Below, piece after piece: positions 32,940-45,488 of a DNA stretch of 64,000 nt. Under the pieces are notes generated by a model. It saw only the letters and a list, made by a program, of their open reading frames with translations. It ran no database searches and was not told the DNA's origin. How positions within the stretch are numbered: position 1 is the stretch's first letter; each line of letters opens with the position of its first letter. Source of the DNA: a virus (Duplodnaviria > Heunggongvirae > Uroviricota > Caudoviricetes). Position numbers and translations under genes: made by a program. The stretch lies in IMG/VR virus record IMGVR_UViG_2703718815_000003, one strand, 5' to 3'.

Positions 32940-32946
32940 GTTAATA

Positions 32947-32964
32947 GATAAGCACTTACCTATC
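32947..32964. promoter_or_regulatory. class II palindromic motif
   Basis: gataagcacttacctatc. Confidence 0.45.
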
Positions 32965-41503: not shown

Positions 41504-41929
41504 TCAATCTTCTTGTTTAGGGAAAAACTGTTCAATAACTCTGTCAACGGCTGTGTCTATATGGAGTAGATGCCACACAACCATATCTTTGCTTCCCATG
41601 CCTTGTGTGAATATCACGTCATACTTACGCCATGCGCAGTGGAACCAATATGCTGAGTCATCAATTGGTAAATCCTCTCCCGCCTCTTTGAAGTATTTCA
41701 GCAGCATTGCCTGCTCTGCCGTTGGCGTTGGACCTATTTCCTGAGCGTACATACGGATGAATCGCTGCCAGTCTGTCTCCTCGGGGGTTGGATCTGGTGG
41801 GGTCATTTCTGCGATAGCGTTTCGTAGTTGATGCGCCCAATCAGGTTCAGGAAAGCCTTTTGCTGCTTCATCATCAATAACATCCAGAGCCACGTTTGCG
41901 GCATCGTAGAGTTTCTTAATAGCTGTCAT
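41504..41929 (-). CDS. hypothetical protein (141 aa)
   Basis: Track ORF; class I motif upstream. Confidence 0.5.
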   Translation of the reverse strand: MTAIKKLYDAANVALDVIDDEAAKGFPEPDWAHQLRNAIAEMTPPDPTPEETDWQRFIRMYAQEIGPTPTAEQAMLLKYFKEAGEDLPIDDSAYWFHCAWRKYDVIFTQGMGSKDMVVWHLLHIDTAVDRVIEQFFPKQED

Positions 41930-41974: not shown

Positions 41975-42008
41975 GCGATAAAAAAGGCGTCCAACTGGAC
42001 GCCTGAAC
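41975..42008 (-). terminator. rho-independent terminator (GGCGTCC/GGACGCC family)
   Basis: aaaaaaggcgtccaactggacgcct. Confidence 0.6.
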
Positions 42009-42020
42009 TTTTTAGGGGAG

Positions 42021-42851
42021 TTATTTCACTGTAATGAAAGGAGTGTTAGCCCCTTGAGTCATGTACTGCGGTAACTGGCCATTCCATTTATTGATGGCTT
42101 CCAGTTCCATAACGTTCGGGTTTTGACGCAGAGCTTCACCGCGCAGACGAATGGCGTCTGCTTCTGCTTGCGCACGAGCACGGATAGCATCAGCTTCACC
42201 ATTAGCCTGTTCACGTAGCATATTCGCCTCAGCTTTACGTTGTTCAACTTCCTGCTGACGTTGCAGAGTACGCTGGTTAGCCGTTACTTTGGCGTTAATA
42301 GATTCAATGACGGTTTTTGGGTAATCAGGCTTTCCAACCCATGACAGGCTCAGTACCTCAATACCAACCGGAGACATCTCTTTCTGAATATCTTTCAGTG
42401 CGTTGTCCAGCAATTGTGCCTTACCACCGTCGATAAATGAGTCAGTGGTCATACGGCTGGCCAAACGGTTTAGAGAGTCGGCAATTTTCTGACGCAGATC
42501 TGATTCGGTGATATCGTCTACGCCTTTGCGATAGGTCTGGAACACCGTCGTTACCTTGTCACGATTAACCAGATACGCAACGCCAATTTTGTGACCAATA
42601 GCAGTACCGTCACTCATCTGGAATGTGAACGGCTCGTCGTAGGTCTTCATTTGTTTGAAGGTCGGGAATACGTAAAGTTCGGTGTTAAGACCTGTCCATT
42701 GGCGACCAACGCCAACTACTTCACCAATCCCTTTGTCTTCACCTAATTTGTTTACTTTGATGCCAACGTATCCAGGCTCCACGCGATCACAGCCAGTAAG
42801 ACCCATTGTGCAAACAGCGGCCACGATCACTGCCAGTAAACCTTTCTTCAT
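42021..42851 (-). CDS. SPFH/band-7 domain lipoprotein
   Basis: 276 aa; signal peptide + lipobox LTGC; SPFH-like core then Ala/Glu/Arg-rich coiled coil. Confidence 0.6.
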   Translation of the reverse strand: MKKGLLAVIVAAVCTMGLTGCDRVEPGYVGIKVNKLGEDKGIGEVVGVGRQWTGLNTELYVFPTFKQMKTYDEPFTFQMSDGTAIGHKIGVAYLVNRDKVTTVFQTYRKGVDDITESDLRQKIADSLNRLASRMTTDSFIDGGKAQLLDNALKDIQKEMSPVGIEVLSLSWVGKPDYPKTVIESINAKVTANQRTLQRQQEVEQRKAEANMLREQANGEADAIRARAQAEADAIRLRGEALRQNPNVMELEAINKWNGQLPQYMTQGANTPFITVK

Positions 42852-42854
42852 TAC

Positions 42855-43055
42855 TTACTTCTCCTTCGAATTGATGAGTGACTTTAGAAACTTACGACCT
42901 GCAATAAACCCGATCACAGGAGCGCCAAAAGCAACGATGATTCCAAGCATTACGGCAATGTCGCTTTTAGTAGAGATCAGCGACGGAACCAGCAAACAGT
43001 AGATGAAAACTACAGATAGACCTGTAACTACTGCCATAAGATAGAGTTTGATCAT
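42855..43055 (-). CDS. small two-TM membrane protein (66 aa)
   Basis: Track ORF; immediately upstream of SPFH gene. Confidence 0.45.
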   Translation of the reverse strand: MIKLYLMAVVTGLSVVFIYCLLVPSLISTKSDIAVMLGIIVAFGAPVIGFIAGRKFLKSLINSKEK

Positions 43056-43086
43056 GTGTTTTCCTATGTGGTTATTGTGTGCTAAT

Positions 43087-43103
43087 GATAAGTAAGTGCT
43101 TAT
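43087..43103. promoter_or_regulatory. class II palindromic motif
   Basis: gataagtaagtgcttat. Confidence 0.45.
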
Positions 43104-43114
43104 ACATTTTCAAT

Positions 43115-43146
43115 ATACAAAAAAGGCGTCCGTTTGGACGCCTGAT
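43115..43146 (-). terminator. rho-independent terminator after recA (GGCGTCC/GGACGCC family)
   Basis: aaaaaaggcgtccgtttggacgcct. Confidence 0.6.
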
Positions 43147-43148
43147 AA

Positions 43149-45488
43149 TTAATCTTCTAGTTCTTCTGTTGGTGATGTCTTCTCTCGTCGGTCATCTATC
43201 GTCTGTAAAGCCGCAATGATTTCAGCTAGTGGCTTCTCCCGATACATCTCGACGATCTGTGATTTGGTGTATTTCTTGTCACCAATTTCAACTCGCCCGC
43301 TGGCGTTCTTTGGCAGGTATCCTTCTTCCAGCATGTACTCGACGAGCGACTCGATAACGTCGAGGCCACGAGTAGGATCGAAGTAGAATTTCCAGGTGCA
43401 TTTGCCATACGGTGGTGCAACTTTGTTTTTGATGCACTCTGCGCCTACGTCCTGACCGATCTTCTCTTTCCCATCCTTCATCACCGATGCACCGAGACGG
43501 ATGCGCACAGAAGCGTAAAACTTCGGTGAATCGCCGCCTGGCGACGTAGTAGGGTCGCCAAACATTACACCGATTTTTGTGCGAACCTGATTCAAGAAGA
43601 TGATGCAGGCGTTGTATTTGCGTGCCCACAAAGCCAGAGTAGGGAAGTTCGCACTCGTCGCACGAGCCAGTGCCGTATTGTCGTTCATGTTCAGCTGATC
43701 TTTGTCTTTGGCAGTGCCTTCAGCCATCTTTTCGAACTTCTCGGCTTTGGAGTTCGGAACCATAGACGCAAGTGAGTCAGCCACGATACAGATAGGTGCT
43801 GATTCAGGAATAAGCTCTTCATCACGTACCAATTTAAGAATTGTGCCGATCAACTCTACAGAGTCTTCGAAGGTATCAGGCTGCTTGTATACCCACTGAC
43901 CGTCATCCTCATCTGCGTTCAGACCATTGGCGACAGCCAGGCCAACGTCAAAACTGTTTTCATGATCGAGGAATACCGCCAGACCATCTTGTTTTTGAGC
44001 GGAGATCATCGCTGCTGTTGCAAGGAATGTGTTGTGGCTGATAATCCCGTTAGACCAGAAAGAGTGTGTTTCCGGCATCGCTACGTCGAACGTTGGTGCT
44101 TCACCTTCCTCAATAGCCACGACTTCGTCGTAGAACAAGTTAGAGCCAATTACCGCTGCCAGTTGTGCAAACAGATGCTCGTTAAAACGATTCTTTCTGC
44201 CAATGAAGGAGACATAGATTTCTCGCAGTTTGTCTATTCCGACACGATCGCCGCGGCCAATAACGTGGTCTACCAGAGCGTAGTCTTCACGGGTGGTCTT
44301 GGTGAGCGACTCGTAGAGTGATTTCACTAAGCCGCTGATGTGCGGAACATAGCCTGAGTAAGTGCGGTCAAAACCAATGTCCCGTTTGGTTGCCACTGAT
44401 AAACGTGCCGGAGATTCGAAACCAATCGTTGACAGAAAAAGGTCGTAATTAGAGCCACTGAATGACAGCCGGTAATATGTATTTTCATAACCCGCGACGT
44501 GTTTTTCAGAGATAGTTGACGTAATCCCCAGATTCAGGAGCATGAGGCGAATTTGCTGTAGCAGCAGCCCACTCGCGCTCACAACCTCAATGCAGCGACC
44601 ATCATTGACGTGGCATTCCAGCTCAAAGTAGCCGCGAAGGAATGCAATTTGAGCCTCGCTATTGGCGCGACGCACACTCAACGGAACCTGCTTGCCAGCA
44701 GCTTTCTCATACTCCAGACCATATTCTTTAAAAAGCAGCGAACGCACCTCTTTGCTAAACAGCACATGGTCTTCCGAGCCGTTATGTTTTCTCGTAACTG
44801 GCATCTTGTCTGATACCAGCGAAATGAGGCGGTAGTACTCATCCTTGATGAAAGGATCTGTGTTAGAAAAATTCACTGAATTTTCAGAGGCCACGTATCC
44901 GTCAGCAATTAAATAGCCCATCAGTTTTGCGATATTGGCATCCAGGTGCTGATCGCCGAATTGATGTGTGCCAACCATTGAAGGAATCGTGTCGCCTACA
45001 CTGATTTTTTCAGCATGTCGCCAGACGACATTACCTAAGTCGTCAACCACACGGATTGGGTGACGGAACGTAGCCTCGATATAACCGCCTGATGCCAGCT
45101 TAATACGCTTGAATTTGCGACGGTTGTTCCATGTCAGGTGTGAGGTCTTCTCTATCACGCCATTTTCATTGATGAGTCCAACGTTATGCTCTACATCGCG
45201 AGTAGTGCATGTCGCTTTGTACCCTTCAATCTCAAACAACTCTTTCACTGTTACCATTCCACGCTCCGTCAGCAGCATGGTGTCTGCGGTAACACATTTC
45301 CCTGCACTTGGAGGACCGAATACTTCGACGATACGACCACATGGGAAGCCGCCATCGTAACGACCGGAAATAGCTTTGTTTAACGGTGGAAAGCCTGTAT
45401 CAATCCAATGAGTTACTTTCTGAATTTCGTCGTTGCTACCGATTTTCTTTTTCAGAGCAAGTGCCAGTGCGGATTTTCCTTTTGCCAT
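43149..45488 (-). CDS. recA: RecA-family recombinase interrupted by an intein (precursor 779 aa)
   Basis: N-extein ...GRIVEVFGPPSAGK then Cys; C-extein collinear with RecA (FLNQVRTKIGVMFGDPTTSPGGDSPKFYASVRI); exteins total about 357 aa. Confidence 0.85.
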   Translation of the reverse strand: MAKGKSALALALKKKIGSNDEIQKVTHWIDTGFPPLNKAISGRYDGGFPCGRIVEVFGPPSAGKCVTADTMLLTERGMVTVKELFEIEGYKATCTTRDVEHNVGLINENGVIEKTSHLTWNNRRKFKRIKLASGGYIEATFRHPIRVVDDLGNVVWRHAEKISVGDTIPSMVGTHQFGDQHLDANIAKLMGYLIADGYVASENSVNFSNTDPFIKDEYYRLISLVSDKMPVTRKHNGSEDHVLFSKEVRSLLFKEYGLEYEKAAGKQVPLSVRRANSEAQIAFLRGYFELECHVNDGRCIEVVSASGLLLQQIRLMLLNLGITSTISEKHVAGYENTYYRLSFSGSNYDLFLSTIGFESPARLSVATKRDIGFDRTYSGYVPHISGLVKSLYESLTKTTREDYALVDHVIGRGDRVGIDKLREIYVSFIGRKNRFNEHLFAQLAAVIGSNLFYDEVVAIEEGEAPTFDVAMPETHSFWSNGIISHNTFLATAAMISAQKQDGLAVFLDHENSFDVGLAVANGLNADEDDGQWVYKQPDTFEDSVELIGTILKLVRDEELIPESAPICIVADSLASMVPNSKAEKFEKMAEGTAKDKDQLNMNDNTALARATSANFPTLALWARKYNACIIFLNQVRTKIGVMFGDPTTSPGGDSPKFYASVRIRLGASVMKDGKEKIGQDVGAECIKNKVAPPYGKCTWKFYFDPTRGLDVIESLVEYMLEEGYLPKNASGRVEIGDKKYTKSQIVEMYREKPLAEIIAALQTIDDRREKTSPTEELED
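44031..45296 (-). mobile_element. intein with LAGLIDADG homing-endonuclease domain inserted in RecA P-loop
   Basis: About 422 aa between GK and T; starts Cys, ends His-Asn, +1 Thr; LMGYLIADGYV and FLRGYFELE motifs. Confidence 0.8.

Follow-up and report, generated by a model that had tools for sequence, protein, structure and literature searches.

A terminator-bounded SPFH lipoprotein cassette of an SSU5-like phage-plasmid and its conserved two-transmembrane partner as candidate parts of a membrane scaffold

We analysed a 64,000-nucleotide stretch of viral DNA (Caudoviricetes; IMG/VR record IMGVR_UViG_2703718815_000003), referred to below as the window, with a focus on a two-gene cassette that encodes a small membrane protein and a lipoprotein with an SPFH (Band_7) domain. 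The window belongs to an SSU5-like phage-plasmid, in agreement with the mobile element that an earlier note on this DNA had proposed as the carrier, and in this region it shares 98.5% identity with Escherichia phage Cyrano (plasmid pLF82 of E. coli LF82) and 78% with Salmonella phage SSU5. Two minus-strand open reading frames (ORFs) lie at the locus, one of 66 amino acids (aa) at 43055..42855 and then one of 276 aa at 42851..42021, with an inter-ORF gap of 3 nucleotides (nt), TAA-GTA-ATG; both share one reading frame, in which positions 42852–42857 are TAA GTA. This adjacency bears out the tight linkage of an SPFH protein to a two-transmembrane (two-TM) partner described in the earlier note, whose account of the small ORF as a 66-aa two-TM protein agrees with the ORF list and hydropathy, and whose account of the large ORF as a 276-aa lipoprotein with an SPFH domain and a long Ala/Glu/Arg-rich helix was upheld by Pfam, the sequence and an AlphaFold model. 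The features of the locus are the following.

41980..42006, minus strand: downstream 27-nt terminator copy, the downstream edge of the cassette (terminator scan)
42021..42851, minus strand: SPFH/Band-7 lipoprotein, PHROG 200 (Pfam, PHROG, AlphaFold, Foldseek, dN/dS)
42069..42089, minus strand: C-terminal motif K-W-N-G-Q-L-P, residues 255–261 (114-sequence alignment)
42123..42317, minus strand: long Ala/Glu/Arg/Gln-rich helix, residues 179–243 (DSSP on the AlphaFold model; composition)
42225..42785, minus strand: SPFH (Band_7) alpha/beta domain, residues 23–209 (Pfam envelope; strands and helices of the model)
42789..42851, minus strand: lipoprotein signal peptide and lipobox L-T-G-C, residues 1–21 (sequence)
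42855..43055, minus strand: 66-aa two-TM inner-membrane protein, PHROG 1130 (ORF, hydropathy, PHROG, dN/dS)
42861..42866, minus strand: Shine-Dalgarno sequence AAGGAG of the SPFH gene, within the final codons of the upstream gene, with a 9-nt spacer to the ATG (read from the sequence)
43085..43113, minus strand: sigma-70-type promoter TTGAAA-17 nt-TATCAT, lying 29 nt ahead of the start codon of the small ORF (promoter scan, 10/12 matches)
43119..43145, minus strand: upstream 27-nt terminator copy, a hairpin AGGCGTCC-AAAC-GGACGCCT with a T-run, which terminates the RecA-intein gene

The core observation, namely the genes and the SPFH domain, is already known at the level of annotation and is not new, since the Cyrano and SSU5 records and the PHROG families label both proteins: the Cyrano orthologues, CYRAN_56/57, are annotated, and those of SSU5 are SSU5_061 and SSU5_062, with the record label 'putative SPFH domain / band 7 protein'. 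What we found to be undescribed in the searchable literature is the conserved pairing or fusion with a two-TM partner that is not NfeD, and the terminator-bounded modularity of the cassette. Both genes are under purifying selection, with ratios of nonsynonymous to synonymous substitution rates (dN/dS) of ~0.03 for the SPFH gene and 0.16–0.25 for the small gene. Their spacing makes translational coupling plausible; other lineages have no gap but an overlap of 4, 8 or 20 nt between the ORFs.

The large protein matched the Pfam Band_7 profile (PF01145) with an E-value of 2.6e-30 and 106.2 bits (cutoff 23.6) over residues 23–209, covering profile positions 2–176 of 176, and matched PHROG 200 ('lipoprotein') with an E-value of 2.6e-107. 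We modelled it with AlphaFold from a shallow alignment, with a mean predicted local distance difference test score (pLDDT) of 77, together with a natural fusion of the two proteins from Rhodopseudomonas palustris, for which a 65-sequence alignment gave a mean pLDDT of 87. Both models contain an SPFH alpha/beta domain, one helix of ~60–65 residues and a short C-terminal segment, and the fusion model has three TM helices in addition. Foldseek searches against the PDB with both models returned top E-values of ~1e-13 at a probability of 1.00 over 250–310 aligned columns, and the top matches were exclusively full-length SPFH scaffolds: HflK/C-FtsH (7vhq, 7wi3), erlin1/2, prohibitin, stomatin, flotillin, QmcA-YbbJ and major vault protein. 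Band_7 score, fold order and N-terminal anchor, the last from sequence only, all place the protein among SPFH proteins. Closed rings or cages are formed by HflK/C, erlin, prohibitin, stomatin, flotillin, QmcA and vault proteins alike. The records of P88, phiP27 and Erwinia phages carry the label 'serine protease', which we reject, having found no peptidase domain and just Band_7 with a weak Flotillin match; the label most likely stems from the old name of the HflC group, 'membrane protease subunit, stomatin/prohibitin homologue'.

Beyond the SPFH core, the most conserved sites among 114 diverse homologues are small residues of the long helix and the C-terminal motif. In the helix, where Ala, Glu, Arg and Gln make up 62% of residues 186–245, A207, A209 and A216 are near-invariant; in the C-terminal motif, which takes the family form K-W-(N/D)-G-x-L-P, W256 never varies, with G258 and P261 near-invariant. 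According to the model, helix 179–243 would be the counterpart of the coiled-coil helix that builds the wall in SPFH cages, and we infer from their conservation that the small helix residues and the C-terminal motif may be features of an oligomer interface. The motif segment has low pLDDT in the monomer model, as might be expected of a segment that folds solely within the oligomer. Shared architecture and the near-invariant helix and C-terminal residues suggest a putative ring or cage assembly of the window SPFH protein.

The N-terminus of the large protein is MKKGLLAVIVAAVCTMGLTGC, with the lipobox cysteine at position 21 and Asp at +2, a residue that constitutes the classical signal for inner-membrane retention in E. 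coli. Among close homologues, the lipobox Cys is at least 90% conserved and the +2 residue is Asp or Glu. In a widespread enterobacterial variant, Cys21 is replaced by Tyr (…MGIIGYDRVEPG…); it is represented by P0002 (95% identical) and P0005 (94% identical, on 175 contigs), would not be lipidable, and is presumably anchored by an uncleaved signal peptide. Some relatives have a plain TM anchor in place of the lipobox. Since relatives carry either TM anchors or C21Y, inner-membrane tethering, and not lipidation itself, seems to be what matters.

The 66-aa protein has hydrophobic segments at about residues 1–29 and 31–54 by hydropathy and ends in the basic tail RKFLKSLINSKEK; outside the two TM helices it consists of just this 13-residue tail. 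It is predicted to be a hairpin with both termini in the cytoplasm (N-in/C-in), with a five-residue periplasmic loop and a cytoplasmic basic tail, a topology that follows from the positive-inside rule and the basic tail. The loop carries the motif P24-x-L-I-S28, of which P24 and S28 are invariant across partners. The protein matched PHROG 1130 ('membrane protein') with an E-value of 3.3e-25, as did 10 of 10 diverse partners. Pfam searches yielded no family for the 66-aa protein, and no NfeD/OB-fold or ClpP-like domain either for it (NfeD at E<=0.1) or for the 10 diverse partners (E<=1). The earlier note had likened the pair to an NfeD/stomatin operon; this likeness failed, as no NfeD/OB-fold was matched in the 66-aa partner, whose length leaves no room for such a domain. 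Assignment of the small protein to an exclusion or holin family was also rejected, the Pfam matches of the 10 diverse partners being at noise level; for holin families, one of the 10 reached an E-value of 0.038, which is noise.

The pairing is strongly conserved. Directly upstream of the SPFH gene, a two-TM ORF of 55–113 aa with the pattern L-x-P-x-[LM]-[IV]-S was present in 84 of 86 loci, with the two genes separated there by a 3-nt gap or overlapping by 1–20 nt. The pair also occurs in N4 (gp19/gp20), P88, phiP27, Mx1 and phi644-2, in Vibrio, Alcaligenes, Cohaesibacter and Shigella prophages, and in a Dyella genome. The SPFH protein of the P2-like phage P88 is 77% identical to that of the window, its partner just 34%. 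Compared with a further locus (L006), the window shows a synonymous divergence (dS) of 0.06 for the SPFH gene and 0.68 for the adjacent small gene, a difference that argues for a recombination breakpoint inside the cassette and for independent shuffling of partners.

Among the best 150 of 2,826 cluster representatives, 18 are natural fusions in which a two-TM module is followed by a basic linker, a third hydrophobic helix with a lipobox Cys, and the SPFH domain. Eleven aligned fusions all have the Pro and Ser of the loop as well as the lipobox Cys, and hhalign matched the profile of stand-alone partners to that of the fusion N-termini with a probability of 98.7% and an E-value of 2e-16. A contig scan with the fusion alignment, which searched by a single peptide pattern and gave 29 loci, shows taxonomic breadth but supports no statistics. 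Because these Rosetta-stone fusions occur together with coupling-type spacing, we argue for a 1:1 functional complex; from sequence, a physical or functional complex of the SPFH protein with its small partner is likely. The in-out-in-out topology of the fusions, with their three TM helices, places the SPFH domain outside the cytoplasm. That the window ORFs are in frame and parted by TAA GTA, and that fused lineages keep an internal lipobox Cys, raises the question of cleavage by signal peptidase II. Some homologues bear labels of another kind, 'transposase' or 'similar to transposase fusion protein' (phi644-2, P0327 from Alcaligenes, and a note on gp12 of phage TL, locus L086), and the phi644-2 homologue (locus L123, 1198–2397) is 399 aa long, with a match to PF00665 (integrase core) noted in its record; these labels look like fusion or propagated misannotation.

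The cassette is delimited by two copies of a 27-nt rho-independent terminator with the consensus AAAAAAGGCGTCC-NNNN-GGACGCCTGA, which form a direct repeat (89% identical); the motif is found nowhere else in the window of 64 kb. At least 25 SSU5-type loci retain the -35 and -10 hexamers of the promoter, with a variable spacer, and 42 retain the terminator pair. Enterobacter plasmid pDR25-3, which is SSU5-like, has no cassette, and a single hairpin there joins the two flanks that border the cassette in the window (locus L120, 2640–2820). In pSJC33-2 of E. coli (NZ_CP080257; locus L121, 327–3384), hsdM and hsdS of a type I restriction-modification module replace the SPFH gene after codon 62, and the small gene is kept. 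The absence of the cassette from pDR25-3 and the truncated SPFH gene of pSJC33-2 indicate that it is dispensable and modular, at a variable site. The arrangement suggests gain and loss of the cassette by recombination at the terminator hairpins, and the site behaves as a hotspot for accessory or defence genes.

Expression values are available from the study that named Cyrano, which re-analysed LF82 RNA sequencing (RNA-seq) data (PMC9928086), and we used its S1 Table. In overnight lysogeny broth (LB), CYRAN_56 was at the detection floor (~0) and CYRAN_57 at ~3–15 fragments per kilobase per million mapped reads (FPKM), and CYRAN_56/57 are absent from the list of 13 Cyrano morons given there (PMC9928086). 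This background level argues against constitutive expression in the lysogen, and a constitutive moron in Cyrano is ruled out by these published data. In macrophages at 6 h, CYRAN_56/57 reached ~150–200 FPKM, with the flanking recA-intein gene and CYRAN_58 at ~10–13 FPKM (PMC9928086), and this rise of the pair while both neighbours stay low supports an autonomous transcription unit. Several structural Cyrano genes also rise in the macrophage sample (PMC9928086), and the signal could come from partial induction in a subpopulation.

Homologues were detected by tblastn in 373 of 50,697 phage records. Virulent carriers comprise N4 and N4-like phages, Vequintavirinae, LUZ24-like Bruynoghevirus, Ounavirinae, phiCbK-like, crAss-like and Lak phages and Mx1; temperate carriers comprise SSU5-like phages, P88, phiP27 and Stx2a-converting phages. 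At the DNA level 475 plasmids match, Yersinia pestis plasmids among them, and 314 of 5,426 complete E. coli genomes (~6%) hold a homologue or close relative. N4 has the pair within its middle genes, after the RNA polymerase II genes and beside gp18 (annotated as exclusion-related). In the early operon of P88 the pair is placed between cox and a replication gene; in lambdoid prophages, between repressor and integrase; and in SSU5-like phages and the Cohaesibacter prophage, among recombination and replication genes.

We read the locus as a dispensable, horizontally mobile accessory cassette that encodes a two-component membrane scaffold, an interpretation with about an even chance of being right as a whole. 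The 276-aa protein would be exported, lipid-modified at Cys21 and held on the periplasmic face of the inner membrane, where it would oligomerise through its SPFH domain, long helix and C-terminal KW(N/D)GxLP motif into a ring or cage of the kind known from HflK/C, prohibitin, erlin and stomatin. The 66-aa protein, made at about 1:1 from the shared transcript, would supply the transmembrane part of the assembly, with its P-x-L-I-S motif at the periplasmic membrane surface beside the lipid anchor, and the pair would act in the lytic programme by conditioning the inner membrane of the infected cell. The parts of this reading differ in strength. The architecture and the periplasmic, inner-membrane location are highly probable predictions; an early-lytic accessory role is fairly probable, action in the lytic programme being suggested by the position of the pair among early, middle or 'left-operon' genes across phages. 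That the actual role is exclusion of superinfecting phage DNA or protection of the membrane is a tentative proposal, in favour of which stand early timing, dispensability, carriage by virulent and temperate phages, and a site that elsewhere holds a restriction-modification (R-M) system. An SSU5-like Klebsiella plasmid lowers the plating of three lytic phages 10–100-fold, with the responsible gene unmapped (PMC8969562).

Several observations weigh against this interpretation. Neither protein matched any defence-system model of PADLOC-DB 2.0 at E<=0.1, and Pfam searches with the small protein and 10 diverse partners gave no match to known exclusion families. The family is strongly conserved, with 77% identity between SSU5-like and P2-like proteins and a dN/dS of 0.03, and exclusion proteins are usually fast-evolving and phage-specific. 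No recognisable partner lies beside the homologues of Erwinia phage MM7, Pseudomonas phage TL and a crAss-like phage, so the SPFH protein can work without one. On the chromosome of Dyella sp. C9 (locus L128, 7709–8870), a 94-aa partner and an SPFH lipoprotein lie in a non-phage neighbourhood (a BlaI-type repressor, FtsX permeases, hemerythrin and ribonucleotide reductase), from which it follows that the family is not exclusively viral. The searchable literature yielded no functional study of the phage SPFH pair, and a 2026 paper calls it 'unclear' why an SPFH lipoprotein is carried by a phage (PMC13239085). Finally, a possibly related Pasteurella prophage protein, PM0222, was reported in outer-membrane vesicles (PMC9872710); if homologous, it would speak against strict inner-membrane retention.

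Other explanations must be set against these data. The pair could mimic HflK/C, with a periplasmic SPFH assembly that encloses or sequesters FtsH or another conserved host membrane machine; by analogy with HflK/C and lambda CIII, which affect CII stability, the result might be altered turnover of membrane or regulatory proteins. HflK is the sole PDB sequence match (E 0.007), HflC and HflK are the best NCBIfam matches (E 2e-7 and 1e-3), HflK/C-FtsH complexes are among the top structural matches, and the predicted periplasmic orientation is shared with HflK/C; strong conservation across unrelated phages and host phyla also fits a conserved host target. The lambdoid location, from repressor to integrase, is the PL-side early region, and the PL-side operon of lambda also holds cIII. 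However, the scores are far below the NCBIfam equivalog cutoffs (18.7 against 159.4 bits for TIGR01933, HflK; 30.2 against 134.4 for TIGR01932, HflC), identity to HflK/C is just ~16–18%, and the structural likeness is equal for prohibitin, erlin and stomatin and hence generic to SPFH cages. There is also one SPFH gene and no K/C pair, its neighbours encode RecA-intein and DUF7238 proteins, and the window SPFH protein has no TM helix of its own, so that we consider such mimicry, and the effect on protein turnover with it, improbable. A canonical NfeD-stomatin operon, or a 'serine protease', scarcely deserves credence: a small membrane gene and an SPFH gene are adjacent, co-directional and tightly spaced, and the P88, phiP27 and Erwinia phage records use the protease name, but the partner has no NfeD/OB-fold or ClpP-like domain and the large protein no peptidase domain, and the absence of an NfeD domain from the partner in Pfam searches effectively refutes the operon. 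Control of lysis timing, in which a holin- or antiholin-like two-TM protein would be corralled by the SPFH assembly to delay or regulate lysis, appears very unlikely. A small two-TM N-in/C-in protein with a charged C-terminus does resemble class II holins and pinholins, a generic property, and eukaryotic SPFH proteins are regulators of channels. Lysis inhibition is shown by N4, a carrier of gp19/gp20 (10.1101/2025.11.12.688109); yet its lysis genes are gp60–63, far from gp19/gp20, and the more than 60 N4 rapid-lysis mutants map to gp61/gp63, the virion RNA polymerase (vRNAP) and the terminal repeats, with gp19/gp20 unmentioned in the accessible part of the text (10.1101/2025.11.12.688109). Within the same limits of that source, the published rapid-lysis mutant selection lends no support to lysis inhibition in N4 via gp19/gp20. 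In Cyrano, holin, endolysin and spanins are CYRAN_22–25, ~30 kb from the pair, and no holin Pfam match rose above noise.

A further view is that the cassette is a lysogenic-conversion moron, expressed by the resident phage-plasmid for the benefit of the host, with prophage-type superinfection exclusion, envelope stress tolerance in macrophages, or virulence as possible gains. It accords with an autonomous promoter-terminator unit flanked by repeats, with a variable site at which a relative carries a type I R-M system, and with the induction of ~10–40-fold in macrophages at 6 h, where no Cyrano virions were detected and the neighbours were silent (PMC9928086). The reduced plating of lytic phages by the SSU5-like Klebsiella plasmid, gene unmapped (PMC8969562), and the report of a prophage-borne, HflK/C-like Pasteurella virulence factor (PMC9872710) would also fit, although that factor, PM0222, is no more than a possible member of the family. 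Against it, CYRAN_56/57 are silent in LB (PMC9928086), strictly virulent phages, which have no lysogenic state, carry the same pair, and P2-like and lambdoid prophages carry it inside early lytic operons; since structural Cyrano genes rise too, induction in a subpopulation could explain the macrophage signal. We therefore consider a moron role unlikely. The earlier note had put forward superinfection exclusion or envelope remodelling as plausible functions, and either may apply; but an exclusion moron expressed from the prophage alone is not the reading that fits best, given the lack of a PADLOC match, the background level in LB and the presence of the pair in virulent N4.

The neighbourhood of the cassette offers further observations. 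Upstream, at 43149–45488 on the minus strand, lies a gene for a RecA/UvsX-like recombinase with an intein that bears a LAGLIDADG homing endonuclease (Pfam RecA, Intein_splicing, LAGLIDADG_3); the SSU5 recA orthologue is 1077 nt long and has no intein, which indicates a presence/absence polymorphism of the intein among SSU5-like elements. Downstream, at 41504–41929 on the minus strand, lies a gene for a DUF7238 protein (PHROG 1451), which in SSU5 and several plasmids is separated from the cassette by an additional NinX/DUF2591 gene. The 12-nt ATAAGCACTTAC in the promoter spacer (43089–43106, minus strand) recurs once, at 32945–32962 (plus strand), with ~0.02 matches expected by chance, and this second copy is located between ruvC-like and ribonucleotide-reductase genes. 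The element may represent an operator common to both sites or a promoter that was duplicated; co-regulation has no support, as the adjacent ribonucleotide-reductase gene is not co-induced in the Cyrano RNA-seq data. A foreign-DNA signature was likewise ruled out by matching GC content (0.459 for the cassette, 0.458 for the window).

A bolder version of the scaffold reading, and one we regard as a long shot, is that the pair represents the founding virus-encoded SPFH cage, a dome that closes off, on the periplasmic side, an area of host inner membrane with the two-TM partner as its fence. Such a dome would confine a conserved host machine such as FtsH, or seal the site of genome entry against leakage or secondary infection; if true, it would be the first defined role of SPFH proteins in virus-host conflict and would explain carriage by N4, SSU5, Stx phages, phiCbK-like and crAss-like phages. 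Scaffolds of the SPFH class are ancient components of membranes, and their cage structures have been solved only recently. The module is common and dispensable, its sequence is strongly conserved and its two genes take up just 1.1 kb; this makes it an unusually tractable system, in which the fusion evidence for a non-NfeD two-TM partner yields a concrete and testable split-membrane-anchor model. Should the pair exclude phages or stabilise infected cells, it would be relevant to phage therapy, phage-plasmid ecology and SPFH function; should it be a generic scaffold with a subtle phenotype, the finding remains routine annotation.

Among characterised systems, the E. coli HflK/HflC-FtsH assembly (7vhq, 7wi3, 9cz2) is the best match of the window SPFH protein in PDB sequence and structure, and shares with it, by prediction, a periplasm-facing, inner-membrane-anchored arrangement of SPFH domain, long helix and C-terminal segment. 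The window protein differs in its identity of ~17%, in a lipid anchor instead of a TM helix, in its much smaller size (255 mature residues) and in its separate two-TM partner. SPFH-NfeD operons (QmcA-YbbJ, 8z5g; YqiK-YqiJ; PH1511-PH1510) likewise place an SPFH gene beside a small membrane gene, the two products presumably assembling with each other, and QmcA is a structural match, but the window partner has no NfeD OB-fold and the window SPFH protein is predicted to face the periplasm, whereas NfeD-partnered QmcA faces the cytoplasm. T4 Imm/Sp, T5 Llp, P22 SieA and HK97 gp15 are small, early, dispensable inner-membrane proteins or lipoproteins of virulent and temperate phages. They are functional analogues only, with no kinship in sequence or fold and no SPFH domain, and are narrowly distributed and fast-evolving, unlike the window SPFH family. 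Pasteurella multocida PM0222, an SPFH/HflK/C-like protein of ~25–35 kDa from a lambda-like prophage and a possible member of the family, differs in being reported as a TLR1/2-activating virulence factor in outer-membrane vesicles (PMC9872710). The closest counterpart is N4 gp19/gp20 (PHROG 1130 and PHROG 200), the same two-gene unit, in which gp20 is 62.6% identical to the window SPFH protein from end to end; gp19 has two TM helices and the motif L-L-P-S-M-V-S, and its gene overlaps that of gp20 by 8 nt. N4, a strictly virulent phage, carries the pair among its middle genes, whereas in the window the pair forms an autonomous cassette on a temperate phage-plasmid.

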